From positions 130 through 64,129 of the forward strand of contig JAABSZ010000004.1 in NCBI GenBank assembly GCA_011390135.1: a DNA stretch of 64,000 bases, read 5' to 3'. A model generated the notes under the pieces. The model was given only the letters and a program-made list of their open reading frames with translations. It was not told the DNA's origin and did not search any database. Each line of letters starts with the position of its first letter. Within the stretch, counting starts at the first letter, position 1. A program made the position numbers and the translations under genes. Of this stretch, positions 2,529 to 62,177 are shown in pieces. The stretch is from Desulfobacteraceae bacterium (GTDB lineage: Bacteria; Desulfobacterota; Desulfobacteria; Desulfobacterales; JAABSP01).

Positions 2529-5201
2529 TTAAAAGGCTCCGCCCATGGTGAACTCCCATTTCCCGCTGCTGCTCTCATCCGCTTCGGGATCGAGAATATA
2601 GCCGTTTTCGATCCGGATGGGCCCCATGGGAGAGTACCACCGGAATCCGAACCCTGCACTCTCCCGCAGGTCAGACAGATCCATACTATCGTCGTCGTTA
2701 TAGACATTGCCGGTGTCGTAGAAGAGAACCCCCACAATGCCGGCCTCCCGGATCAGGGGGATCAGGTATTCGAGATTGAACTGGAGGAACTTGTTGCCGC
2801 CGATCTTGTCCCCGTTTTCATCATACGCGCTGATGTCCCGCCAGTCAAAGCCGCGCATGGAGTTGATGCCCCCGAGGTAGAATCGCTCGTAGTCTGGCAG
2901 CAGTCCATCTTCGGTGTCGGCCACATACCCGGCCTTGCCGTGAAGAAAGCCGACGGTTCCCCAGAAAAGAGGGACATACTGCCCCAATTCCCCAAGGTAT
3001 TTTGTAAATGCGATATCTCCGCCCAGTCCCGCATATTCGACGCTGATGCTGTGGTCCGAGCCCTCTGTCGGGTTGAAGACCCGGTCCCTGGAGTCAAACC
3101 GGAGGGTTGTGGCGATGCTGCTGGTGACATTCTCCCCCTCCATCTGCCTGACCAGGCTCGATGCATCCTCGTAGTCGATATTGGTGATCTCGCCGATGTC
3201 ATAGGAGTAGGCCAGATAGATCCGGGTGTAGTCGAAGACCGGATAGCCGAACCGGACCCCGCCGCCCTGGCTCTCCTTGTCATAGGTGTCGTAGTCCCGC
3301 TCCCAGTTGTAGAGGTCGAAGCCGGCCGAAAGCGGCATATCAAAGAGCCACGGCTCGGTGAAACTCAGGGTATAGCGGCTGGTGGTTCCCCCCACCTCGG
3401 CCTTGAGCTGCAGAACCTGACCCCGTCCGAAGAGGTTCCTCTGACTGATCGCGGCCATGGCAAAGAGGTTCTCCACGCTGGAATAGCCGCCGCCGAAGCT
3501 GAAGGTTCCGGTCGGCTTTTCAGTCACATCGATCTTCAAAACCTTCTGATCCCCCGCGCTGCCCGGAAGGGTATTGACCTGAACATCTTCGAAATAGTCG
3601 AGCCGGTAGAGATTGCGGATGCTCCGCTTCAGATCGCCGCCGCGGAAGAGATCCTGCTCCAGCACCTTGAGCTGGCGCCGGATCACCTTGTCCCGGGTCT
3701 TGGTGTTGCCGGTGATGAGGATCTTTTCGATATAGACCGGCTCCCCCTTTTCAATCGAATAGGTGATATCGACGCTCTGCCCCTCTTCTCTCTTCTCCCG
3801 CTTAGGAAGGATCTTCGCGTTGGCATACCCCACATTTCCGTAGATATCGGTCAGGGCCAGCACATCATTACGGACCCTCTCCTGGTTGTAGTATGCCTCC
3901 TCGTCGATGCCTACGGCCTTCATCATCTCGGCCTTTGGCCGGATCAGCTCGTCTTCGACGCTTTCGATTTCGACCTTTCCCACTTCATACCTAAGCCCCT
4001 CCTCCACCTTGATGGTGATAAAGATATCCTCGGCTTTGTATTCGATGATGGGATCGCTCACCCGGGCATCGATATAGCCTGTGTTGTGGTAGAATGCCCC
4101 GATCTTGCCGATATCCTGCTCAAGATCCTCCGGGTCCAGATCCCCGGCCGAGGTGAGCCATGACCAGAAGCCCCTCTCGGAGGTATTCATCAGCTTTTTG
4201 AGCCGCTTGTCGGTATAGGCGTCGTTCCCTTTGAAGGAGATCTCCTCGACCCGCACCTTCTCCCCCTCCCCGACTGTGAAGACGAGATCGGCCTGGTTGT
4301 TCTCCTGAGACTGAAGATCGTAGGTCACTTCCACATTGTGGTAGTTCTTCTCCTTATATAAGGTCTCGATCCGCTGGATGTTGTTCTGGATTGCAAAGAC
4401 GTTGACAATGGCCCCGGTTGCGATGGAGAGATTTTCCTGGATCTCCTCGTCATCGAAGATCCGATTGCCGAGGATGATGATGTTGCGGATGGTCGGCTTC
4501 TCCCGGACATGAAGAATGACGGACTTTCCGCCGCGCCGGTCCTCGGCCTCGACCCGGATGTCGTCGAAGTAGCCCATGTTGTAGATGGCCTTGATGTCGT
4601 CCGACAGGGATTTGGGCGTATAGGTCTCGCCGGGCGCGGTATCGATGATCCGCCGGATCGCATCGTCCTCGATCCGATCATTCCCCTCGATCCTGACCTC
4701 CACCACCCGCTCCCGCTTGAAGAGACGGAGCGCAAAATCCCGGGTCAGATCCCGGACAATGGAAGGAAGATTTTCAATGCTGTCTCCCTCCACATAGAAT
4801 GTCTTCACCGGTTCTGTGCCGTAGGGGTCGATCATCCGGGCATCGAGGCTGAACTTCTTCCCCACCCAGGTGAGGCTTCCCAGGATCACATAGTCTGCCC
4901 GGTTTTCGATCCCGACCTCCCTGACCCGTTCCGGAGAGGGCGTTTTCGCACTTTCCAGGGATTGTGCGGGTTCAACGATGACCGCGCCCTCCTCCCGGAG
5001 ATGATTTTGGATCACCTCGGGAATCCGGGTCTTCAGATATCCGAGATCCCGCTGTGCAAAGATCTCGAATGGCCAGACCAGCACCCGAACCCGCTCTTGT
5101 GCAGCCCCCACTTTCGGCAGAACTCCGCAGACCAGCAGCACCGCCATCAGGATCATCCCTCTCCCAAATCCCCCTGCACTCCACCCTCTCATCCGGATCA
5201 C
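2529..5201 (-). CDS. bamA: outer membrane protein assembly factor BamA
   Basis: 890 aa with a signal peptide, repeated POTRA-like segments (V.E..I.GN), a C-terminal beta-barrel and a terminal ...EFTMGGAF. Confidence 0.9.
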   Translation of the reverse strand: MIRMRGWSAGGFGRGMILMAVLLVCGVLPKVGAAQERVRVLVWPFEIFAQRDLGYLKTRIPEVIQNHLREEGAVIVEPAQSLESAKTPSPERVREVGIENRADYVILGSLTWVGKKFSLDARMIDPYGTEPVKTFYVEGDSIENLPSIVRDLTRDFALRLFKRERVVEVRIEGNDRIEDDAIRRIIDTAPGETYTPKSLSDDIKAIYNMGYFDDIRVEAEDRRGGKSVILHVREKPTIRNIIILGNRIFDDEEIQENLSIATGAIVNVFAIQNNIQRIETLYKEKNYHNVEVTYDLQSQENNQADLVFTVGEGEKVRVEEISFKGNDAYTDKRLKKLMNTSERGFWSWLTSAGDLDPEDLEQDIGKIGAFYHNTGYIDARVSDPIIEYKAEDIFITIKVEEGLRYEVGKVEIESVEDELIRPKAEMMKAVGIDEEAYYNQERVRNDVLALTDIYGNVGYANAKILPKREKREEGQSVDITYSIEKGEPVYIEKILITGNTKTRDKVIRRQLKVLEQDLFRGGDLKRSIRNLYRLDYFEDVQVNTLPGSAGDQKVLKIDVTEKPTGTFSFGGGYSSVENLFAMAAISQRNLFGRGQVLQLKAEVGGTTSRYTLSFTEPWLFDMPLSAGFDLYNWERDYDTYDKESQGGGVRFGYPVFDYTRIYLAYSYDIGEITNIDYEDASSLVRQMEGENVTSSIATTLRFDSRDRVFNPTEGSDHSISVEYAGLGGDIAFTKYLGELGQYVPLFWGTVGFLHGKAGYVADTEDGLLPDYERFYLGGINSMRGFDWRDISAYDENGDKIGGNKFLQFNLEYLIPLIREAGIVGVLFYDTGNVYNDDDSMDLSDLRESAGFGFRWYSPMGPIRIENGYILDPEADESSSGKWEFTMGGAF

Positions 5202-51099: not shown

Positions 51100-53919
51100 A
51101 TGCCCAAGTGGATAAAGTGGATCATCATCTTGCTCGTTGCACTGCTGGGAGTGGCCGCGGTCTTTGTTCTGATCAGCCTTCTTCTGGTCGATTTCATCGT
51201 CGATTACTGGTGGTTCAGCGCCAGAGGATACGGATACTACTTCTTTCTCCGGCTTCTCTATAAGTACCTGATCTTCCTCGGCGTCACCGCGTTCTTTTTT
51301 GGAATCTTCTTTTCCAACTTCTGGGTCGCCTCCCGCTATCTGGGAACCCGGAGCCCCAAAGGAGGAGCCGGGAATCGGCGGGCCCGGTATCTGCTGAAGA
51401 TGTTCAGGACCGGCTCCATGAAGGTCTATCTCCCCTTATCCCTGATCCTGGGGGCCGTCATCGCGATCCCATTCTACATGAACTGGGAGCAGGCGATCCT
51501 CTTTATCTTCGGCCCGGACGCGGGTCTGGAGGACCCGGCCTACGGGATCGACATCAGCTTCTACCTCTTCGACTATCCCATTTTTCTGCTGATCCAGTGG
51601 CATCTTCTGATCACCTTCGGCCTGCTCTTTATCAGCCTTGCACTGCTCTACTGGATCGAGAACCGGATGCTGGCTACCACGGAGTTCAGCCTTCCAAAAG
51701 GTGCGAGAATCCACCTGACCGTCATCATCCTCATCGTCATCGGCATCCAGATATGGGGGTTCATGCTGGAGCAGTACGGTCTGCTCTATTACAATGATCC
51801 GGACAGGGTCTTCTTCGGCCCCGGGTATGTGGAGATGTACTTCTTACTGCCGCTGATCTGGGTCAAGATATTCCTCTTCACGGGCGCGGCCTTATCCCTC
51901 ATCTTCATGATCCTTCGCTACAGAGGAACCCGGCTCTTTGCCGCCTTTGTCCTCCTCTTCGGCCTGACGCTGATTGCGGAAAAGACCCATTTCATATCCG
52001 ACACGCTCGAAAAATACATCGTCGAGCCCAACGAACTGGTAAAGCAGTTGCCCTTCATCTCCAGAAATATCGACGCCACCCTCGATGCCTACAAGCTCAA
52101 CGATATCGAAACCCGGGAGTATATCATCGATCCCATCTCCGTGGTTTCCGAGACCGATGACCTGGTCAAGAACCTCCAGAACATCCCGGTCTGGGACAGG
52201 GAGCTGCTCGATGATGTCTATGAGGAGCGCCAGGCTATCCGCCCCTACTACTCCTTTCCCGGCATCGACATCGACCGCTACACCGTGAACGGCGTCCACC
52301 AGCAGGTCAACCTGGCTGCCCGCGAGATCATGACCCGGAAGCTGCCCCCCCAGGCCGCGAACAGTTGGATCAACAAACGGCTCCAGTACACCCACGGATA
52401 CGGCCTGGTCATGAACCCCGCGGCCCAGGGCGGGGATAAGTCCATACGCTGGTTCGTCCAGGACATCCCCCTGCGCTCCGACTTCGGCTTTGCGATCAAA
52501 CAGCCGGCCGTCTATTACGGGCTGGAGGAGTACGAGTATGTCATAGCTCCCTCGGAACTGGGGGAGATCCACTATCCGGAGCGGGAGGGGAACGTGCTGA
52601 TCCATTACGACGGAAACGGCGGGGTTCCTATGAACAACCTCTTCAGAAAGCTCCTCTTTGCGGTTCACTACAAGGAAAGAAACATCTTCTTCACCACAAA
52701 GACCACCGAAAACAGCCGTATCCTGTTCCGGCGGAACATCCTGAAGGCGATCAATATTCTGACCCCCTTCTTCCGCCTCGACCGGGACCCCTATGTGGTG
52801 ATGACCCCGGAGCGGATCTACTGGATTCAGGATGCCTACACCACATCGAAGTCGTATCCGTATGTCCATGAGTACCAGGGGGAGTTCAACTATATCCGCA
52901 ACTCGGTCAAGATCATCGTGGATGCCTACAACGGGGATATCTTCTTCTACACCTTCGACCCGGATGACCCGATCATCCGCGCCTATGAACGGGCCTATCC
53001 GAACCTGCTCAGGCCCCCGGAGGAGATCCCCGAATACCTGCGGCCCCATATCCGGTATCCCAAAGACATCTTCGATGCTCAGATGGATGTCTACACCAAG
53101 TACCACCAGATGGACCCGGAACTCTTCTACCGCCAGGAGGACCACTGGGAGTTTGCGGGGATCGAGACCGCGCTCATGCGCTCCTACTATCTGACCCTGA
53201 ACCTCATCAACGAGGACCGGCACGAATTCATCCTGATCTCCCCCATGAGCCCCATGAACCGGGACAACCTGCGGGCCATGCCGGTGGTCGGGTCCGACGG
53301 AAAGAATTACGGCAGGATACTGATCTACAACTTTCCAAAGGGCCAGCAGGTCTATGGGCCTGCCCAGGTGAGTTCCCTCATCGATCAGGACACGGCCATC
53401 GCGCAGGAGTTCACCCTCTGGGATCAGGCCGGCTCACAGGTGATCCGGGGGCGGATGATCGTCCTGCCGGTGGAGAATGTCATCCTCTACATCCAGCCGG
53501 TCTATCTCGTCTCCTCCACAAGGCTCAAGATCCCGGAGCTGGTCCGGCTCATCATCAGTGAAGGAACCGCTGTAGTTATGGATAGGGATCTTATGGAAGG
53601 ATTGCGGAAACTGGAGGCCCGGGTGCTGGAGAGAGGAGAGCCGATGGATGGCCGGTTTCCCAGCCAGGCTACGGCCGAAGAGATTCCGGCCGAAGAGGTT
53701 GGGGCCGAAGGGGAAGGGATTCCGGTTGAAGAGATCCCGGCCGAAGAGGTTCCGGCCGAAGAGATCCCAGCCGAAGAGATCCCTGCCGAAGAGATCCCTG
53801 CCGAAGAGATTCCTGCCGAAGAGATTCCTGCCGAAGAGATTCCTGCCGAAGAGATTCCCGGCGTGCCGGATGAGGCGCTGCCGGAGACCGGCGAGGCCCC
53901 GACGCCGGGGAATCCATAA
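51100..53919 (+). CDS. UPF0182-family large membrane protein with repetitive acidic C-terminal tail
   Basis: The ATG at 51100 follows AAGGAGG. There is an N-terminal bundle of about 7 TM segments, then a large soluble region containing IYWIQDAYTTSKSYPY, and the tail is an EEIPA repeat. Confidence 0.75.
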   Translation: MPKWIKWIIILLVALLGVAAVFVLISLLLVDFIVDYWWFSARGYGYYFFLRLLYKYLIFLGVTAFFFGIFFSNFWVASRYLGTRSPKGGAGNRRARYLLKMFRTGSMKVYLPLSLILGAVIAIPFYMNWEQAILFIFGPDAGLEDPAYGIDISFYLFDYPIFLLIQWHLLITFGLLFISLALLYWIENRMLATTEFSLPKGARIHLTVIILIVIGIQIWGFMLEQYGLLYYNDPDRVFFGPGYVEMYFLLPLIWVKIFLFTGAALSLIFMILRYRGTRLFAAFVLLFGLTLIAEKTHFISDTLEKYIVEPNELVKQLPFISRNIDATLDAYKLNDIETREYIIDPISVVSETDDLVKNLQNIPVWDRELLDDVYEERQAIRPYYSFPGIDIDRYTVNGVHQQVNLAAREIMTRKLPPQAANSWINKRLQYTHGYGLVMNPAAQGGDKSIRWFVQDIPLRSDFGFAIKQPAVYYGLEEYEYVIAPSELGEIHYPEREGNVLIHYDGNGGVPMNNLFRKLLFAVHYKERNIFFTTKTTENSRILFRRNILKAINILTPFFRLDRDPYVVMTPERIYWIQDAYTTSKSYPYVHEYQGEFNYIRNSVKIIVDAYNGDIFFYTFDPDDPIIRAYERAYPNLLRPPEEIPEYLRPHIRYPKDIFDAQMDVYTKYHQMDPELFYRQEDHWEFAGIETALMRSYYLTLNLINEDRHEFILISPMSPMNRDNLRAMPVVGSDGKNYGRILIYNFPKGQQVYGPAQVSSLIDQDTAIAQEFTLWDQAGSQVIRGRMIVLPVENVILYIQPVYLVSSTRLKIPELVRLIISEGTAVVMDRDLMEGLRKLEARVLERGEPMDGRFPSQATAEEIPAEEVGAEGEGIPVEEIPAEEVPAEEIPAEEIPAEEIPAEEIPAEEIPAEEIPAEEIPGVPDEALPETGEAPTPGNP
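53674..53860 (+). repeat. 15-bp coding tandem repeat (pentapeptide EEIPA/EEVPA units)
   Basis: GCCGAAGAGAT(T/C)CC(N) is repeated, with seven consecutive EEIPA units plus degenerate flanking units. The copies differ mainly at synonymous third positions. Confidence 0.9.
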
Positions 53920-53934
53920 AAAGGAATGATATCC

Positions 53935-55515
53935 TTATGACCGGGGCAGTTCGACGGTGAACCGGGTCCCTGCCGGGGAGGTCGAAACAGAGACCTCTCC
54001 GCCGTGGGCCTCGGTGAACTGCTTTACGATGGCCAGCCCCAGGCCGGTTCCCTTGGACTTTCCGTAAGTGGAAAAGGGAACGAAGAGGTGTTCTCTGATC
54101 TCCTCGGCAATCCCCCCGCCGTTGTCGGAGACCTCGAATCGAACCTTCCCCTCCTCTCCATCCGTCACCTTCAGAAGAATGGAAGGCGCATCGGGCTTTC
54201 TCTTCTCAACGGCCTCGGCCGCATTCCTTATCAGATTGACCATGACCCGAAAGATCTTTCTCTCATCTGCGGGAAAGGGAGTATCCGAATCCATCTCCAC
54301 CTTCATGGGGACAGACAACTCCCGGAGATTTTCCGCCACCGATCTTGCCACCGATTCCACAAATGGCCCCATGAGGATGGTATCTTTGGTCAGCTCCGCA
54401 TTATGGGTGAAGTCGAGGATATCCTCAACCAGGGCCAGCGCGGCCACGGCCTGCTCGTCGATGAGCCGGTGGATCTCCTTTACCGCGTCCGGATCATCGG
54501 CCATTTCGGCCGCCATTGACGTTGCGCTGCAGATGCTGCCGATGGGCCCCCGGAGATCATGGGCCACCATGCCGATCGCCTTCCCCACCGCGGAGAGCTT
54601 CTCGTTTCGGATCAGGGTCTCCTGAAGATCGACATTCGCGATGGTCAGAGCCGCCTGCTCCAGAAAGAGGCGCACCAGATAGATCCGCTCGATGTTGATG
54701 GACCGGACCCCATCCTGCAGCAGCGCGACGATCCCGTACCGGCCCAACTGGAAGAAGAGGAATCTCTCGGCATAATGGGTCATCCGCTCGGGAAAGCCGG
54801 TTTTTTCCAGCTCCAGGATATACTCGTTCTCCGAACCGGTCTCGGCAAGGGCCCCGATGCTGATCACTTTGTCGAAAAACCCTTTGCTGTTCTGCACCAC
54901 CAGCATCGCGGAAAGGGTTCCCAGCATATCGGCCACCTGCTGAAGGATGTTGTTTAGCAGCGGCTTGAGCTGCCATCGGCTGGCCCGGAGATGGGAGGTG
55001 ATCTCGATGAGATCCTCCAGGCTTCTGGCCTTGTTCCACTCATAGACCGCCTTTGTGGCGATCTGGCGCACCTCCTCCACGGAAAAAGGCTTGCAGTGGT
55101 AGCTGACATTCATGCCGGCCCGGGCCACCACCTCTTCGATGCCGTAGTCGCTGTATGCGGTGACAAAGATGATCTCGGCCCGCTCATCCACATCCCGAAT
55201 CCGCTGAACAGTCTCCAGGCCATCCCATCCCGGCATCCGCATGTCCACAAAGATTGCGGCAAAGGGCTGCTCTTTTTCAATGGCCTCTTTAACCATTTCA
55301 AAACCTTCGATGCCGTTGGCAGCTACGGAAAGCTCAAACCGGAAAGAGTTCTCCTCTTTCCGGTCCCGGGCCGTCCCCTTCCCGAAAAGAACCTCCGATG
55401 CCCGATCCAGCGAATAGGAATCCCGGCGCTTGGGAACCAGAATATCCCGGAAACTGTCTCTTATGGTTTCATCATCATCGATGACCAGAATGCGGTTGTT
55501 GAAGACATGTCTCAT
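53935..55515 (-). CDS. hybrid signalling protein: N-terminal receiver + sensor region + histidine kinase
   Basis: 526 aa with a REC domain (ILVIDDDETIRD...FVDMRMPGWDG), an H-box AHDLRGPIGSI and HATPase_c motifs (DNGGGI, GTGLGLAIVK). Confidence 0.85.
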   Translation of the reverse strand: MRHVFNNRILVIDDDETIRDSFRDILVPKRRDSYSLDRASEVLFGKGTARDRKEENSFRFELSVAANGIEGFEMVKEAIEKEQPFAAIFVDMRMPGWDGLETVQRIRDVDERAEIIFVTAYSDYGIEEVVARAGMNVSYHCKPFSVEEVRQIATKAVYEWNKARSLEDLIEITSHLRASRWQLKPLLNNILQQVADMLGTLSAMLVVQNSKGFFDKVISIGALAETGSENEYILELEKTGFPERMTHYAERFLFFQLGRYGIVALLQDGVRSINIERIYLVRLFLEQAALTIANVDLQETLIRNEKLSAVGKAIGMVAHDLRGPIGSICSATSMAAEMADDPDAVKEIHRLIDEQAVAALALVEDILDFTHNAELTKDTILMGPFVESVARSVAENLRELSVPMKVEMDSDTPFPADERKIFRVMVNLIRNAAEAVEKRKPDAPSILLKVTDGEEGKVRFEVSDNGGGIAEEIREHLFVPFSTYGKSKGTGLGLAIVKQFTEAHGGEVSVSTSPAGTRFTVELPRS

Positions 55516-55525
55516 TCCTGCTCCT

Positions 55526-57628
55526 TTACTGTTCTGTTCGCTCTTGTTGCTCTTGAATTACAGGCTCCTGAACGGTCGGCAGTTCCATGACCACCGTGGC
55601 CCCTTTTCCTTCTCCGTCACTGTCGAGAAGAAGTGTTCCGCCGTGGCTTTCCACAATGTTTCGGCACTGGTAGAGGCCGATTCCGGAATTGCGGTTTTTG
55701 GTGCTGTATCCTTTTTCAAAAAGCTTTTCACCCTGTTCCGGTGAAAAACCGCATCCATTGTCAGCAATGGTGATCCCGATCCGCTCTTTCCACGGGATGT
55801 TTTCAATGTCGATGTCGATCACCGGCTCCGGGGGCACATCTTTGACATCAAATGCTTCGCAGACATTTTTGAGCAGGTTCAAAAAGACCTGCATCAGCCG
55901 GGTCCGGTCTCCGGAGACCCGAGAAAGATTTCCGTCGTACTTTCTCCGGATCTTGATCTTCCGCTTTTGAAAGCCGCCGATATTCATGGCAATGGCATCT
56001 TCGATCAACTCCGGAATATCGATATAGACCTTTTTCCCCATCCGCCCCTCCTGGGCATACTGGCGCTGGAGGTGAAGGATCTCGTTGATATGGCCAAGGG
56101 TCTTTGTCATCCGCTCCACATTCCCCCGGAATTCCAGGAAGCGGTTTTCCAAACTGCTGTTCAACTCCCGGACAAATGTGATCAGCGCCTCTCCCTTTCC
56201 GGGCCCCAATGCTGTTTCCAGGGAATCCTTCTGCCCTTCGAAAAGCCTCTGAAGGCGCTCCATCGCATCCCGTTCGGGCCACTGCTCCCCCAGCAGACCC
56301 GTCAGCAGTGTCCCCAGCGCGGTGACCGCATTGCCGATATCATGGAGAACACTGGAGGCCATCTCTATCTTCCCCTGCTGCATGGCCTCCTGCTGCATGG
56401 CCTCCACGATCTTCTTCTTGATCTGAACCTCTTCGGTGTTGTCGAGGATTGCGCCTTCGGTATATCCTCTTTCCCCATAATGGGCCGCGCTCAGGATCAG
56501 CGAGCGCTCGTTCCCGTGCCGATCCCGGACCGCGAGATCGAGATTGTCCACCTTCCCCTCGGTATCGAGGATCTTCTTGAGCCGATTCCGATCCGCGATG
56601 TTGATATAGCAATTTCGGGGAACCATCTCGGCCTTCATCTTTGCCGGGGAATCATAGCCGAAGATCTTTGCCGCGGCCGGGTTTGCCTCCAGCACGGTCG
56701 ATCCGTCCGGCGTGATTCTGAAGATCCCCACCAGTGCGGTGTCGAAAAGATTCCGATACTGCGCCTCCCGCTCCTTGAGCTGGGAGAAGATCAGCTTGAA
56801 AGGCTTTCTCAAACCAGTCTCCACAATGGCCTTGTAGATCATATAGTAGGAGGCGAACTTCAAAAAGTGCCCCACGAGATTGGAAAGGCCGTAGGCGCTG
56901 ATATAAAGGGTAAGGATGAATTCGCTGATCATGGTCAAAAAGATGGCCCCCGAAATCAGCAGGTAGAGATTCTGATCAAAGCGATTCCGGTTCCGGTAGA
57001 TATGGATGAGGGCAGCAATCAGAATCAGGCAGATGATGTATTCGCCGGCAATCTTGAAGGGGGTTTGACTCAGACCCGGGACCAGGCATTCGGGGAAAAT
57101 ATCCCAGATGAAGATCGACATCAGTAAAAAGGCGGTCACCGCCCCCAAAAAGGTAAAAAAAGCGCCATAGGAGATCCGGGGCTTTGTGCCGAAAAAAAGA
57201 GGTATCCCCAGCAGCGTCAGGCTCTCCATAAAGCGGGCAGCAACCCAGAGCTGGACAGAATACCCCTCGCCTTGGGCCAGGATGTCCATGCCGCTGTAGC
57301 TCAGGGTATGGAAGAGATCGAGTACCGAGATGAAGAGATAGGCGATCCCTGCATAGACCAGGACCTGATTTTCCGTGAGGTCCCTGGCATTCCAGGAGAC
57401 CAGAAAGACCGCAAAAGCGATGACAATGCTGAAGATCTCCGCAAGGGTATGGAAAAGGAGGTAATTATGGATGGAGATAAGAAAGAACAGCAGTCCCAGC
57501 AGAAGGAAGAAGGTCACCTTCTGCAGGAAGCCCTTCACTTCTTTTCCGACTGCGGTATCTGACGACATGCCCGATCTTCCGGAAAACTTCAATATCCACG
57601 ATCCCTTTCCGAACATATCTTCTATCAT
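55526..57628 (-). CDS. MASE3-PAS sensor histidine kinase
   Basis: 700 aa with an N-terminal polytopic domain carrying LFHTLAEIFSIVIAFAVF (MASE3-like), a PAS segment and a divergent HisKA/HATPase_c (DNGCGF, GIGLYQCR). The start may instead be ATG 57568. Confidence 0.8.
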   Translation of the reverse strand: MIEDMFGKGSWILKFSGRSGMSSDTAVGKEVKGFLQKVTFFLLLGLLFFLISIHNYLLFHTLAEIFSIVIAFAVFLVSWNARDLTENQVLVYAGIAYLFISVLDLFHTLSYSGMDILAQGEGYSVQLWVAARFMESLTLLGIPLFFGTKPRISYGAFFTFLGAVTAFLLMSIFIWDIFPECLVPGLSQTPFKIAGEYIICLILIAALIHIYRNRNRFDQNLYLLISGAIFLTMISEFILTLYISAYGLSNLVGHFLKFASYYMIYKAIVETGLRKPFKLIFSQLKEREAQYRNLFDTALVGIFRITPDGSTVLEANPAAAKIFGYDSPAKMKAEMVPRNCYINIADRNRLKKILDTEGKVDNLDLAVRDRHGNERSLILSAAHYGERGYTEGAILDNTEEVQIKKKIVEAMQQEAMQQGKIEMASSVLHDIGNAVTALGTLLTGLLGEQWPERDAMERLQRLFEGQKDSLETALGPGKGEALITFVRELNSSLENRFLEFRGNVERMTKTLGHINEILHLQRQYAQEGRMGKKVYIDIPELIEDAIAMNIGGFQKRKIKIRRKYDGNLSRVSGDRTRLMQVFLNLLKNVCEAFDVKDVPPEPVIDIDIENIPWKERIGITIADNGCGFSPEQGEKLFEKGYSTKNRNSGIGLYQCRNIVESHGGTLLLDSDGEGKGATVVMELPTVQEPVIQEQQERTEQ

Positions 57629-57683: not shown

Positions 57684-57711
57684 GCATCGGGAGTTTTCAG
57701 GCTCCCGATGC
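57684..57711. other. GC-rich 10-bp stem-loop between the small ORF and the MASE3 kinase gene
   Basis: GCATCGGGAG (57684-57693) pairs with CTCCCGATGC (57702-57711). No U-tract follows on the minus strand, so it is not a classical terminator. Confidence 0.5.
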
Positions 57712-57718
57712 GCGGGAT

Positions 57719-57871
57719 CTACTTATCCGGATTTTCCGCGGGCTTTTTCTTTTTGTCTGTCACCTGACAGGCATCACGCACTCAGGTGGAGACGCCCATT
57801 TTGGGAAGGATATATCCCTGCAGCAGAAACCATATACCGATAAAACCGAGAAATATCAGAATCTCTTTCAA
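57719..57871 (-). CDS. candidate small membrane selenoprotein (50 codons if TGA-30 is read as Sec; 29 aa if it is a stop)
   Basis: TTG start at 57871, 7 nt after AAGGAGG. The product reads MKEILIFLGFIGIWFLLQGYILPKMGVST-[TGA 57784-57782]-VRDACQVTDKKKKPAENPDK-TAG. A hairpin CUGUC-AGGU-GACAG (57770-57757) begins 11 nt after the UGA. Confidence 0.35.
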
Positions 57872-58058
57872 ACCAACACCTCCTTTTTCAAAGAATTTTC
57901 CCTTGTCTCTTCTTCCGATGGAATATAAAGTATAAGATGGCTCCGCCCCCGGTGCAAGGCTTAATAAGCCCTTTTAACCGGATATTTTCTTTTGACGGCA
58001 CAGATGCTATAGAAAGATGCCGTATACTTGTAAGCAGAACACTTCAGCGGAGGAGAGG

Positions 58059-59549
58059 ATGCGTTTTTTAAAGCGAGTCGGAAAAAGGAGCATTCGGATC
58101 AAGCTGATGCTGCTGGTGTTATTGAGCATCGCAGGGATCGGCGCGATCACCGGCATCAACATCTATCTGGACAGGATGATTCAAAAGGATCTGGATATCG
58201 GAACCCTGAGCCAGGAATTGGTCCGGGATGTTCTACAGGTGATGATGGTGGAGGCCGACTATCTCTACCAGAACCTTCCCGAACTTCTCGATGAGTATGA
58301 GCAGGTCGATGCCTCGCTGCACAGGACCATCGAAGAGATCCGGGGGATCACCGACAATCCCGAGGTCATGGAGCAGATCAGAGGCATACTCCGATTGGAC
58401 GAAAAGCGCCAGGAACTCTTCGGCAGAGCCCGGGACAATATCGGGAAGATGAACCAGTACAAGACTATGCTCGAATCGACTCCGCAGCTCAACCGGCTCG
58501 AGGCGGAGATGAGAGCGCTCCGGAATGCCGACAATTCCCTTTGGAAAGAATTGAAGGCCGCGGGGATGGCGGTTCGGGACAAGGCCCTGGAGATCGGCCG
58601 GATGAGCCGTGAGACGGTCCGGAAGAGTACAGAGCTGAGAAGCAGGGCCGGCATCGGCTTCACCCTGGCCGCGGCTGCGGCCCTGATTCTGTTGAGCGTT
58701 CTCCTCTACCGTTCGATCATCAAACCGGTCAAGGGAACCGTTTCGGGCATCGACATCATCACCGCGCAGGTGCTCTCCGCGTCCAATGAGCTGGCCCGGG
58801 CCAGCCAGAGCCTATCCGAAGGCGCTTCGGAACAGGCGGCCGCGCTGGAAGAGATCGCTTCGGCCATCGAAGAGATGTTCGCGGTCAGCCGGAAGGTGGT
58901 AATGGACACGGAGAACGCCAACCAACTGATGAACGAAAACATGGAAAAATCGGGGCAATCCCTCAAGTCTCTGGTAGATCTGACCCGGAGCATGACCGAG
59001 ATCGAATCGGACAGTGACCGGATCGGCGGCATCATCAAGACCATCGACGGGATCGCGTTTCAGACCAATCTTTTGGCCCTCAATGCCGCAGTGGAGGCGG
59101 CCCGGGCCGGAGATGCCGGCAGCGGATTCGCGGTGGTGGCCGACGAGGTCAGGAATCTGGCCATCCAGACCACCGAGGCCGCCAAAAGGACCCAGGATCT
59201 GCTCAATGCCACCATCGGCCGGGTGATGGAAGCGGCCAAAGCCATCAAAGGGATCAACACCGACTTCGAGGGGATCATCGAATCGGCCACGATCATGGGA
59301 GAGAAGAGCCAGTCCATCTCCAAGTCCAGCCGGATGCAGAACCGGGGGCTTGAAAGCATCAATCTGGCCTTACGGGAGATGGATAAGATGACCCAGCAGA
59401 ATGCGGCCAGCGCACAGGAGTCGGCCTCAACCTGCCAGGAACTGCGGAATCATGCCGAGAAGATGATGGAGATCGTGGATGAACTCTCCGCGCTGGTGGA
59501 AAGAGGAAACTCAGGAAACCCGGGGGCCGACGGGAACTATTCCCGGTAA
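58059..59549 (+). CDS. methyl-accepting chemotaxis protein
   Basis: The ATG at 58059 follows GGAGGAGAGG. The protein has an N-terminal TM, a helical sensor, a second TM and an MCP signalling domain ([37 protein letters not shown]). Confidence 0.9.
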
Positions 59550-60928
59550 TCGTCCGATCTTATCCCGTAACGCCGCATGACCTGTTGCAGGGACTGCCGC
59601 TCCAGACCGCACATCTTCGCGGCCTGGGTCACATTCCCCCCGCTTTCCATCAGCAGATGGCCGATATAGGCCCGGTTGAACCGGCTCAGGATCTCCTCCT
59701 TGGCCTCCTTGTACGGCAGCACCAAGGTATCCTCGGCAACCCCTCCGGCTTTGGGCGCAGCCGGCTTCAACCCCACATCTCCGGGGAGAACCATCTCTCC
59801 TTTTGAGAAGAGGATCCCCTGGATTATGATATTCTCCAGCTCCCGGATGTTCCCCTCCCACTTTCGATCCAAAAAGATATCCATCAGCTCCGAAGAGATG
59901 CTTTTGAGCGGCTTTGAAAGCTTTGTGCAGTGCTTCTCCAGAAGATGATCGGCCAGCAGCGGAATATCCTCTTTTCTCTCCTGAAGCTGCGGCACCACGA
60001 TCGGCAGCACATTCAGCCGGTAGAAAAAATCATCCCGGAACTCCCCTTTTCGGATCTTCTCCTTAAGATCCTGGTTGGTGGAGGCGATGATCCGGACATC
60101 CACGGTGATGGCCCGGGTATCGCCAAGAGGCTTGATCTCCTTCTCCTGAAGCACCCGGAGAAGCTTTGTCTGCATGGCCGGGCTGATATCGCCGATCTCA
60201 TCCAGAAAGATGGTCCCCCCGTGCGCCTCCTGAAAGAGCCCGATCCGGTTCTGTGTCGCATGGGTGAATGCCCCCTTCCTGTATCCGAAGAGTTCGCTCT
60301 CCAGGATATGCTCCGGAACCGTAGGACAGTTCACGGCCACAAAGGACTTCCCCGCTCTTGGGCTAAGCCGGTGAACCGCCCTTGCGGTCAATTCCTTTCC
60401 CGTGCCCGACTCGCCCGTGATCAAGACCGTCACATCGGTCTTTGCCACCATCCGGATAGTCTCGTAAACCCTTTGCATGGCGGGGCTTTTGCCCACGATA
60501 TTCTCCAGCCCTTCGGCCCCCTTACATACCTTTTTCAGCCGGATATTCTCCTGTAAAAGGGTGCTGCGCTCCAGCGCCTTTTCCAGCCGCAGGATCAGCG
60601 CATCATGGTCAAAGGGCTTGGTGATGAAGTCATAGGCCCCCTGTTTCATGGCCGAGACCGCGATATCAATGCTGCCGTAGGCCGTCATCATCATGACGGT
60701 CGTCTCGGGATGGTTCTGCCGGATCAGCCCCAGCAGCTCCAGCCCGTCCATGCGGGCCATCTTGATATCGGCCAGCACCAGATCCACAGGCGCTTTGGAA
60801 AGCATCTGAAGCGCAGCCTCCCCCGAAGGGGCCGTCTTCACAACACAGTCCAAGTCCGGCTCCAGGCTCCGCTTCAGCAGCACCAGCATATCAGGCTCAT
60901 CATCAACGATGAGAATCGTCTGCGCCAT
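59537..60928 (-). CDS. sigma54-dependent response regulator (NtrC family)
   Basis: REC ([10 protein letters not shown]...[11 protein letters not shown]), an AAA+ domain with GESGTGKE and GAFTHA, and a C-terminal HTH ([24 protein letters not shown]). Its 3' end overlaps the convergent MCP gene by 13 bp. Confidence 0.9.
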
Positions 60929-62177
60929 CACGCCCCCCCTGCACTTCTCCTATCCTCTCCCTCCCTCCATCCGGTCCTTTTCGTCCTTTTTGTCCTTTTG
61001 GTCCTTTTTTATACTCGGTTTTAAACCCGGTTTTTTCCGCTAAAACCGCCGGCAGCCACACCGTAAACGCAGCCCCCTCCCCCGGCAGACTCTCCACTTC
61101 AATTTCACCGCCATGATTCTTGATGATCCCGTAGCTCACCGAAAGCCCCAGCCCGGTCCCCTCTCCGGTCGGCTTGGTAGTAAAAAAAGGGTCAAAGATC
61201 CGCGGCAGGTTCTTTGCCTCGATCCCGTATCCGCTGTCTTCCACCCGGATCGCCACAAGCCTTTGTTCCCCATCCCACCTTGTGGAAAGGAAAATCCTTC
61301 CGGCCGCTCCCACGGCATGGCGGGCATTCATCATCAGATTCACCAGCACCTGCCGCACCTTCTTCTCATCCAGATATAAGGGCGGCACCGCGGGATCATA
61401 CTCCCTTACAATCTCCACATCCTCCAGCCGGGAGTGGTGACGAATGAAATTTATCCCCTCATCGATGATCTCATGGATCTGAACCATCTCCTTTGCCGGA
61501 GGCGCGCTCCGGGCGAAATTGAGCAGATCCTCCACAATGGCCTTGCAGTTCTTAACATGCTTTTCGATGATCTTAAGATCTTCATATTTCTGGGACTCCC
61601 GATCCTCCCCCCGCAGCAGCAACTGGGTATATCCCAGGATGATCCCCAGCGGGTTGTTGATCTCATGGGCAATCCCCGAAGAGAGCTGCCCGATCGAGGC
61701 CAGCCTGTCCGCCTGGACCATCTGTTTCTCTGACCGGGCCAGCGCCTCTGTCCGCTCCGCCACCAGCTTTTCAAGGTTCTGGTTCATGAAGATCAGTTCC
61801 CCGTGGGCCTCCTGCAGGGCTCTTTTGTCTGAAAGAATCCGGCCGTAGATGCTCCAGATCCGTTCGAAGAAGAGCGTCACCGAGGCCACCAGAATCAGGG
61901 TGAAGGTGTTGATGGTTCCGCTGTATGCAGCGATATCACTCCAGATCTCTTCATGCCCTGCCAGCAGAAGGATCTGCTTTAAAATATGTCCGGCCGACCG
62001 GGAGACCGAAAATGCCCCGAGGCCGTAGCAGACCCAGAGGAGATAGGTCCAGATCAGATTTCCCGGATCTTTCCGCTTGAGCATCCGGACCAGATCGAGG
62101 CAGAGAAATGAGAAGACGATCATCAGCACCGATCCGACCAGATCGACCAGCAGGATGGGAATGGCCGTCACCACCAT
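60903..62177 (-). CDS. membrane sensor histidine kinase (partner of the sigma54 regulator)
   Basis: 424 aa with 4 N-terminal TM segments, an H-box AHEINNPLGII and HATPase_c motifs (DSGYGI, GTGLGLSVSYG). About 45 residues of low-complexity tail follow ...FTVWLPAV. Confidence 0.85.
   Translation of the reverse strand: MVVTAIPILLVDLVGSVLMIVFSFLCLDLVRMLKRKDPGNLIWTYLLWVCYGLGAFSVSRSAGHILKQILLLAGHEEIWSDIAAYSGTINTFTLILVASVTLFFERIWSIYGRILSDKRALQEAHGELIFMNQNLEKLVAERTEALARSEKQMVQADRLASIGQLSSGIAHEINNPLGIILGYTQLLLRGEDRESQKYEDLKIIEKHVKNCKAIVEDLLNFARSAPPAKEMVQIHEIIDEGINFIRHHSRLEDVEIVREYDPAVPPLYLDEKKVRQVLVNLMMNARHAVGAAGRIFLSTRWDGEQRLVAIRVEDSGYGIEAKNLPRIFDPFFTTKPTGEGTGLGLSVSYGIIKNHGGEIEVESLPGEGAAFTVWLPAVLAEKTGFKTEYKKGPKGQKGRKGPDGGRERIGEVQGGRDGADDSHR
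60974..61004 (-). repeat. 9-bp phased GGAC repeat (minus strand AAAAGGAC x4) inside the kinase 3' tail / ntrC-type leader
   Basis: GTCC occurs on the plus strand at 60974, 60983, 60992 and 61001. The repeat translates as KGPKGQKGRKGP in the kinase frame and contains the same AAGGACGAAAA core as 25166-25176 and 35028-35038. Confidence 0.8.

Follow-up and report, generated by a model that had tools for sequence, protein, structure and literature searches.

The present study concerns a small gene on the minus strand of a 64,000-nt stretch of DNA (hereafter the window) from a Desulfobacteraceae bacterium (assembly GCA_011390135.1, contig JAABSZ010000004.1, positions 130 to 64,129). Comparison with homologous loci lets us propose with good confidence that an authentic but unannotated selenoprotein gene, with a product of 50 residues, occupies the open reading frame (ORF) 57871-57719, and makes it highly probable that the in-frame UGA at codon 30 is decoded as selenocysteine (Sec) via a minimal selenocysteine insertion sequence (SECIS) hairpin. 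Under the proposed mechanism, the ribosome would start at a TTG codon and make one transmembrane helix. At UGA-30, the minimal SECIS (5-bp stem, AGGU loop, 11-nt spacer) would recruit SelB with Sec-tRNA(Sec), Sec would be inserted in place of termination, and twenty further codons would be read to a TAG.

Following the TTG start (57871-57869), 28 codons encode KEILIFLGFIGIWFLLQGYILPKMGVST and lead to the TGA (57784-57782), beyond which 20 sense codons (VRDACQVTDKKKKPAENPDK) extend the frame to the TAG at 57721-57719. The full product of the window ORF would be MKEILIFLGFIGIWFLLQGYILPKMGVST-U-VRDACQVTDKKKKPAENPDK. An earlier note on this DNA, made from its letters alone, had located the Shine-Dalgarno (SD) sequence, the TTG, TGA and TAG codons, the hairpin and its spacer, and all of these coordinates are correct on the minus strand. 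The window TTG aligns with an ATG start in 44 homologues and with a GTG start in one locus (L043), and purine-rich GGAG-like boxes stand at the equivalent place in most homologous loci. Entropies of 0.69, 0.26 and 1.36 at codon positions 1, 2 and 3, respectively, over codons 2-29 indicate a third-position wobble of the coding type.

An initial protein search returned only four 29-residue proteins, all ending at the equivalent point. A pattern scan of the genome set, with one genome per species, identified 46 loci, the majority of them in Desulfobacterales (including Desulfosarcina metagenome-assembled genomes (MAGs) and the chromosome of Desulfonema magnum), with a few in Syntrophales and one in a Chloroflexota MAG. 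The codon after ...LPK[ML]G[IV]ST is TGA in 46 of 46 genome loci, and at no locus has it been swapped for TAA or TAG. At their true ends the 46 genes use TAA in 24 cases, TGA in 15 and TAG in 7 (one unreadable); because these stops are mixed, TGA can be recognised as an ordinary stop elsewhere in these genomes, yet it is the sole choice at codon 30. Behind the TGA the frame remains open for 16-35 codons (median 24) at all 46 loci, while the other two frames are open for at least 15 codons at 7 and 22 of them. The Cys five residues after the TGA (U-x4-C) is kept in 45 of 47 sequences and a basic, hydrophilic tail is present in every homologue, with both frame and protein conserved on either side of the TGA.

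Cys-containing relatives align to the same codon. A profile search returned 2,249 relatives at 90% clustering and an exhaustive hidden Markov model (HMM) search 1,634 representatives at 50% clustering, mostly 29- or 34-aa truncations. Fifty-four Cys-form cluster representatives were found, and TGT or TGC at the Sec codon was verified in the DNA of loci L047, L049, L051, L053, L054, L055 and L057. Cys homologues are abundant, and Sec and Cys forms share the motif LPxxGxxT[C/U]xxxxC. Homologues thus carry TGA or TGT/TGC at position 30 with conserved sequence beyond it and none of the 46 genome loci ends there in TAA or TAG, the pattern that the earlier note had proposed to look for.

The putative SECIS has a 5-bp stem and a 4-nt loop, AGGU, which begins 16 nt past the UGA. 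In the published bacterial SECIS (bSECIS) model the stem has 4 bp or more, the loop has 3-9 nt with G in its first two positions, the distance from the UGA is 16-37 nt and the minimum free energy does not exceed -7.5 kcal/mol; the hairpin conforms to this model with a borderline energy (-7.5 to -8.3 kcal/mol; z = 0) and a distance, 16 nt, at the lower limit. Covariation was assessed on an ungapped alignment of 40 sequences, with 500 column shuffles and a slid 3' arm as controls. The five core pairs are paired in 98.5% and show compensatory changes at two of the five, none of the 500 shuffles reaches the observed score, and sliding the 3' arm results in 28-89% pairing. At the outermost stem pair, 26 sequences have C-G and 11 have U-A; at the fourth pair, U-A occurs in 29 and C-G in 11, with no mixed combination. 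This fourth pair has as its 5' base the third, synonymous letter of the Cys codon (UGU/UGC) and as its 3' base the one that sets Thr or Ala three codons later, and only an RNA-level constraint explains why a silent change in a Cys codon should be tied to a Thr/Ala change. Codons in the loop are likewise fixed beyond what the protein needs (Gln is CAG in 38 of 39 sequences, Val is GUG in 35 of 39), and entropy at third positions, 1.36 ahead of the TGA, is only 0.78 behind it. The covariance analysis envisaged in the earlier note hence upholds the core of the hairpin described there. Its extension, by optional outer G-C and U-A pairs beyond a C/A mismatch (57773-57754), exists in the window but fares less well across homologues, with the outer three pairs only 53-73% paired.

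A natural control for SECIS function is provided by the contrast between TGA and TGY (TGT or TGC) members of this one family. A metagenome scan seeded with Cys forms only resulted in 80 further loci, of which 76 were resolved, 48 with TGA and 28 with TGT/TGC. Counting only perfect stems whose loop begins 16-26 nt from the codon and has G in its first two positions, we found a bSECIS-like hairpin in 43 of 47 metagenomic TGA forms versus 2 of 28 Cys forms, with mean hairpin energies of -8.6 and -1.0 kcal/mol, respectively. The hairpins of other subfamilies include GACCG-AGUU-CGGUC, GACGUCGA-GUC-UCGACGUC, GCCGC-GGUC-GCGGC and GCUUCC-CGUGA-GGAAGC, with loop starts at 16-26 nt. As judged from these alignments, conservation across subfamilies is of the predicted structure, not of the sequence or the encoded residues, and is limited to forms with UGA. 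Two recent converts from Sec to Cys, L051 and L057, keep the hairpin, a ‘fossil SECIS’ in the terms of Zhang et al. 2006, while divergent Cys forms are without it. The same contrast separates RNA-level from protein-level requirements. QV[T/A] follows the second Cys in 37 of 45 Sec forms, whereas QVT does so in 1 of 54 Cys forms; being nearly confined to Sec forms, this motif is best seen as a by-product of the SECIS, imposed by the RNA. The C-x4-C spacing is kept in 53 of 54 Cys forms although the following residues drift, which marks the second Cys as a requirement of the protein.

These comparisons bear directly on a reading in which the real product is a 29-residue membrane peptide ending at the UGA, the hairpin being regulatory (an attenuator, terminator or processing site) and the open frame incidental. 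We give this reading scarcely any credence, because TGA stands at 46 of 46 loci while true stops vary, the frame behind it is always open, the Cys at +5 is conserved past the supposed stop, the TGT/TGC homologues form one continuous ORF, the hairpin follows TGA rather than TGY codons (43/47 against 2/28), and genuine terminators occur after the second stop and not after the TGA. What speaks for it is the public annotation of the family as 29-aa ‘hypothetical proteins’ (for example DENIS_2149) and the thermodynamically unexceptional hairpin of the window; some 29-aa product is in any case to be expected, since Sec insertion is never fully efficient. Least probable of all is a pair of coupled ORFs, in which a 29-aa peptide stops at the UGA and a hydrophilic peptide of ~20 aa re-initiates at an adjacent GTG or ATG: of 47 sequences, 29 have ATG directly behind the TGA and 4, the window included, have GTG, but 14 have a poor or non-start codon there (CTG, CTC, TTT or ATA), the residue is merely hydrophobic and is also M, L or V in the continuous Cys-form ORFs, and such coupling offers no reason for the exclusivity of TGA or for a hairpin that tracks TGA versus TGY.

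Several observations weigh against Sec decoding and need to be set beside this evidence. The 50 nt from the UGA fold with -8.3 kcal/mol, a value identical to the average over 200 dinucleotide shuffles (z = 0.00), and many family hairpins are at or below the -7.5 kcal/mol cut-off; as the window hairpin is no more stable than its shuffles, the case must be comparative and not thermodynamic. A tRNA scan of the 64-kb window detected no tRNA genes and tRNA-Sec, sought in 55 related loci, was found in none. We found no literature report of selenium incorporation (75Se labelling or mass spectrometry), and one 569-bp contig has CGA (Arg) at the Sec position. The host taxa, which rank among the richest Sec users, on the other hand support Sec decoding, Desulfosarcina and other Desulfobacterales being listed as Sec users with 24-63 selenoprotein genes. 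The suggestion that UGA-30 encodes Sec, first made from the window alone, is supported by the invariant TGA (46/46), the open frame, the Cys homologues and the covarying hairpin. As far as sequence can tell, the combined results cover all of the computational criteria used in the field for a selenoprotein gene.

The contig with CGA (L064, 295-456) has an intact CUGUC-AGGU-GACAG hairpin. At the Sec position, five database representatives have R and one each has S, L or K; such forms may reflect sequencing errors, recent mutations or pseudogenes. A divergent member is that of the Chloroflexota MAG (L043, 5001-5140), which has a Cys three residues before the Sec (G-C-S-T-U, a CxxU arrangement) and no downstream Cys; its post-UGA residues are unrelated, yet a 7-bp hairpin, CGCGUCC-GGA-GGACGCG, is present with a loop start at 20 nt. 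Further window ORFs interrupted by a single TGA were also sought, but at 57% GC the results were too noisy to use.

The earlier note did not recognise the protein as a member of any described selenoprotein family, a statement that no longer holds. BLASTP aligned the window protein with a Desulfosarcina ovata entry in deep-Sep Data S1 (71% identity over 41 residues, E = 2e-23), the Sec residues being aligned. The entry reads ...MKEILTLLAVLGIWVLLQAYILPKLGITTUMRDACQVTSKK..., and that of D. widdelii MKGIEMKEILTLLAVVGVWILLQAYILPKLGISTUMRNACQVTSKQ...; similarity to listed family members thus includes the Sec position. A divergent entry, ...VLPRMGVKTUMSSACEPEDR..., resembles the metagenomic subfamilies found here. 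In addition, Table S3 of Peng et al. 2016 lists a family ‘Unknown (Geobacter lovleyi)’ with 5 sequences in 5 organisms. By sequence match, the family is an already predicted, obscure and uncharacterised selenoprotein family of which the window gene is one more putative member. Profile resources did not recover it: the window protein has no match to a selenoprotein-family HMM, with no Pfam or NCBIfam hits at E <= 10, ten Cys homologues produced only noise against the same two databases, PADLOC and Protein Data Bank sequence searches with the Sec form (U replaced by C) and the Cys homologues returned nothing, and an Rfam scan of the window at gathering thresholds gave no hits. In the 119-family table of a 2026 review no name or motif fits, and G. 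lovleyi is absent from that review. We found no published statement on the membrane topology, SECIS covariation or gene neighbourhoods of the family.

Standard pipelines miss the gene or cut it to 29 aa, and genetic codes 4 and 25 misread its Sec as Trp or Gly. Dozens of metagenomic ‘full-length’ members carry Trp or Gly at the Sec position (P0005, P0007-P0017; L065 109-273). In the DNA these W and G forms are TGA codons translated under code 4 or 25, because the gene caller chose one of those codes for short contigs; the error is systematic and, by chance, exposes read-through ORFs. A genuinely reassigned genetic code was rejected, as TGA also terminates 15 of 46 of these same genes. No Pfam or NCBIfam model exists for this family of at least 1,634 clusters at 50% identity, and a simple one would put thousands of records right. 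The family prediction predates this work and knowledge of the Sec decoding mechanism is unchanged by it; added here are the topology, the covariation, the TGA-versus-TGY control, the family size, the missing HMM and the stress-gene neighbourhoods.

The product may be among the smallest bacterial selenoproteins and would be tethered to the membrane. The expectation of one hydrophobic helix followed by U-x4-C beside the membrane, raised in the initial reading of the window, agrees with the homologues and with an AlphaFold2 model of a Cys homologue (20-sequence alignment), in which residues 2-24 form a helix with a predicted local distance difference test (pLDDT) score of about 85 and the tail is disordered. 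Sec and Cys forms alike have a net charge of ~0 ahead of the helix and of ~+2 over the 22 residues that follow it. Since the tail carries the positive charge, the positive-inside rule gives an N-out/C-in orientation, and we infer that the short N-terminus lies outside and the Lys-rich tail inside, which would place U-x4-C at the cytoplasmic face of the membrane. A lipobox follows the pattern [LVI][ASTVI][GAS]C without a charged residue in the preceding positions, and in secreted peptides a short h-region is combined with small residues at -3 and -1. A lipoprotein or secreted peptide was rejected here on account of the invariant Thr at -1, the conserved Lys/Arg at -6 and a hydrophobic stretch of ~20 residues, which is of transmembrane length; the flanking charge, which points the tail inward, also disfavours it.

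The function that we tentatively favour, at somewhat under an even chance, is that of a cytoplasm-facing, membrane-tethered selenol/thiol pair acting in thiol-oxidative or reactive-sulfur stress and recycled by thioredoxin. This proposal derives from gene neighbourhoods. Directly downstream in 18 of 47 Sec loci are an extracytoplasmic function (ECF) sigma factor and a soluble zf-HC2 anti-sigma factor of 89 aa (H-x3-C-x2-C). Layouts of Cys forms comprise thioredoxin-sigma-zinc anti-sigma (ZAS)-small gene-ArsR-resistance-nodulation-division (RND), sigma-thioredoxin-small gene, and thioredoxin-small gene; one Cys-form locus has three ArsR genes, rhodanese/YgaP, peroxiredoxin, a persulfide dioxygenase (PDO)-rhodanese, the small gene, carboxymuconolactone decarboxylase (CMD) and TauE. 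Among 124 immediate neighbours of ~70 metagenomic members, the most frequent Pfam families are DUF302 (8), thioredoxin (7), rhodanese (7), YgaP-like_TM (6), Lactamase_B (4, PDO-rhodanese fusions), zf-HC2 (3), hemerythrin (3) and TauE (2), several of the neighbours being co-oriented with the small gene and just 2-38 nt away. These recurrent neighbours are gene sets of thiol-oxidative and sulfide/persulfide stress responses. The U/C pair would cycle between a reduced form and a selenenylsulfide, or carry sulfane sulfur; thioredoxin would recycle it, and the MASE3 kinase adjacent to it in the window would not be a partner. Given these neighbours, the family is a tractable candidate for an unrecognised component of membrane thiol or reactive-sulfur stress handling.

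In a GC-rich TGA subfamily (…GVPT-U-MSGxCDVESRR; L074, L099, L115, L121, L136), a DUF302 gene ends 2 nt before the start of the small gene, which points to a tight DUF302-selenoprotein operon at these five loci. At three Cys-form loci DUF302 is downstream of the small gene.

Against this functional proposal it has to be said that gene neighbourhood is its one line of evidence, that the neighbours are heterogeneous (a CopA-type ATPase in 5 loci, MobB, HD and sigma-54 regulators), and that many counted loci are from closely related species, so that counts are not independent. The window itself has none of the redox neighbours, and the AlphaFold2 model has an overall pLDDT of only 67, with the U-x4-C region lacking predicted structure. 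Some of the same neighbours raise the main functional alternative, that the selenoprotein handles soft metals (Cu(I), Hg, Zn, Cd) at the inner membrane face rather than redox or sulfur chemistry, which we consider unlikely. A CopA-type P1B ATPase with two HMA domains is immediately upstream and co-oriented in the 5 Sec loci just mentioned, ArsR/SmtB regulators and CzcB/RND or CusB-like efflux genes adjoin Cys forms, and the 2026 review puts the share of metals among predicted Sec-ligand contacts at about 70%. The CopA association, however, is limited to one clade, the ArsR-type regulators sit in persulfide-type operons, and thioredoxin, rhodanese, persulfide dioxygenase, DUF302, TauE and ZAS neighbours outnumber metal genes.

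The ECF sigma loci have features of their own. At L012, L016-L023, L026-L028, L032, L036, L038 and L040 the sigma ORF starts inside the selenoprotein tail ORF in another frame (about 5088-5165 in locus coordinates, e.g. L016 5128), with its ATG 38 nt after the UGA and 35 nt before the stop of the tail, and the last 14 nt of the sigma gene are shared with the zf-HC2 anti-sigma ORF. Nothing SD-like precedes the sigma ATG except the SECIS loop, AGGU(GA), about 15 nt upstream. A conserved GTAACC-N15/16-GTCTC lies about 60-95 nt upstream of the small gene's ATG at L012, L016-L023, L027 and L028; its resemblance to an ECF-type promoter (AAC...GTC) suggests that the selenoprotein may be the first gene of an autoregulated sigma operon. 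L032, L036, L038 and L040 have a sigma-70-like box, GGACA-N17-TATAA(A/T). With the sigma start inside the tail ORF and the SECIS loop as SD-like sequence, sigma translation could depend on the UGA being read as Sec. It is conceivable, if quite improbable, that in Desulfosarcina-type loci the selenoprotein is the sensor of the adjacent ECF/ZAS switch with Sec decoding gating sigma translation; a Sec-based oxidant or persulfide receptor near the membrane would then relay oxidation to the zinc-thiolate anti-sigma factor. Were this true, a stress regulon would be coupled to selenium status.

A role as redox- or selenium-responsive accessory subunit of the adjacent MASE3 kinase, also put forward in the earlier note, has not survived and is now very improbable. 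In the window this MASE3/PAS/HATPase_c histidine kinase is the downstream gene, co-oriented and 90 nt away, and the same layout recurs in L001. A full-length orthologue of the kinase follows the small gene only in the window and in this locus, which is 97% identical to it, and was found next to the small gene in none of the 45 other genome loci or ~76 metagenomic loci. Co-occurrence is thus not conserved. The two genes are moreover separated by a promoter-like site and by a hairpin of -21.7 kcal/mol (z = -3.9, 0/200 shuffles as stable) that is conserved in L001 and may be a terminator, insulator or RNA-stability element. Several relatives have the small gene as a monocistronic unit that ends in a terminator of its own; in L007, L009, L013 and L014 a canonical hairpin and T-run follow the stop of the extended ORF.

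Positions of the gene, its elements and its neighbours in the window are given in Table 1. The assignment of a sigma-70-type promoter upstream of the small gene is a candidate of low confidence. The close relative L001 keeps an equivalent (TTGCGC-N17-TATATT), and the site was unreported in a consensus scan because its -35 box matches 3 of 6 consensus positions. Although a sigma-54 regulator precedes the small gene at many loci, no relevant match to a sigma-54 promoter (TGGCAC-N5-TTGC) was detected in the DNA upstream of the gene. The small gene is situated in a dense signalling region of the window, with a histidine kinase, a sigma-54 response regulator, a divergent methyl-accepting chemotaxis protein, the MASE3 kinase and a hybrid kinase/receiver; 12 other Sec loci likewise have a sigma-54 regulator upstream of the small gene, at only about 39% identity. 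A convergent ORF nearby has a C-terminal acidic tandem repeat.

Table 1 Coordinates of the putative selenoprotein gene, its elements and neighbouring features in the window
Feature	Position	Strand	Details
Candidate sigma-70-type promoter, low confidence	57929..57957	-	TTGCAC (57957-57952), 17-nt spacer, TATACT (57934-57929)
Shine-Dalgarno sequence	57879..57885	-	AAGGAGG; start codon 7 nt downstream
Putative selenoprotein ORF	57719..57871	-	50 residues: TTG start, Sec codon 30, TAG stop
Predicted transmembrane helix, codons 2-24	57800..57868	-	conserved G-x-W-x-L-L-Q...I-L-P-K
In-frame UGA, codon 30, putative Sec	57782..57784	-	homologue comparison
Cys-35 codon UGU, U-x4-C partner	57767..57769	-	Cys at +5 in homologues
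SECIS-like hairpin	57754..57773	-	core CUGUC-AGGU-GACAG 57770-57757; 11-nt spacer after UGA
True stop TAG	57719..57721	-	read from sequence
Post-ORF hairpin	57684..57711	-	GCAUCGGGAG...CUCCCGAUGC, GC-rich, 10 bp, without U-tract, 7 nt after TAG
MASE3/PAS/HATPase_c histidine kinase	55526..57628	-	
Histidine kinase	60903..62177	-	
Sigma-54 response regulator	59537..60931	-	
Methyl-accepting chemotaxis protein	58017..59549	+	divergent
Hybrid kinase/receiver	53935..55515	-	
Convergent ORF	from before 52786	+	repeat PAEEI/PVEEI, about 12 copies, at about 53700-53919

In outline the product recalls SELENOK and SELENOS, which likewise have a single-pass membrane anchor and a disordered cytosolic tail carrying Sec. 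They have no sequence relationship to the window protein, their SECIS is in the 3' untranslated region and their Sec near the C-terminus, whereas here the Sec would be at the membrane interface with a Cys five residues on. The minimal element of E. coli fdhF has the same 11-nt spacing, and the fdhF hairpin contains a bulged U while that of the window is without one. With fdhF and the bSECIS consensus the family hairpin shares an in-coding stem-loop just after the UGA, a 4-nt loop with G at position 2 followed by another G, and a 5-bp upper stem; it differs in its very small size, with a distance (16) and an energy (about -7.5 kcal/mol) that barely satisfy the model. TsoA (LULAXC-motif, NF045695) is likewise a small selenoprotein that pairs its Sec with a nearby Cys (U-x3-C) and occurs in the same organisms, but its sequence is unrelated and soluble, about 150 aa long (deep-Sep Data S1) and differently spaced, and the window protein has no NCBIfam hit to it even at E <= 10. 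Gene context is reminiscent of SigR-RsrA-type modules, as genes for ECF sigma, soluble 83-89-aa zf-HC2 anti-sigma and thioredoxin adjoin members in three distant lineages; the small membrane protein is not among the components described for such modules, and the likeness extends to 18 of 47 Sec loci, mostly of one clade, and to a minority of Cys loci, being absent from the window. The closest correspondence is with the family listed in deep-Sep, whose architecture, MKEIL...LLQ.YILPK.G..T-U-xxxxC-QVT, is the same as that of the window protein, with nothing structural that differs.

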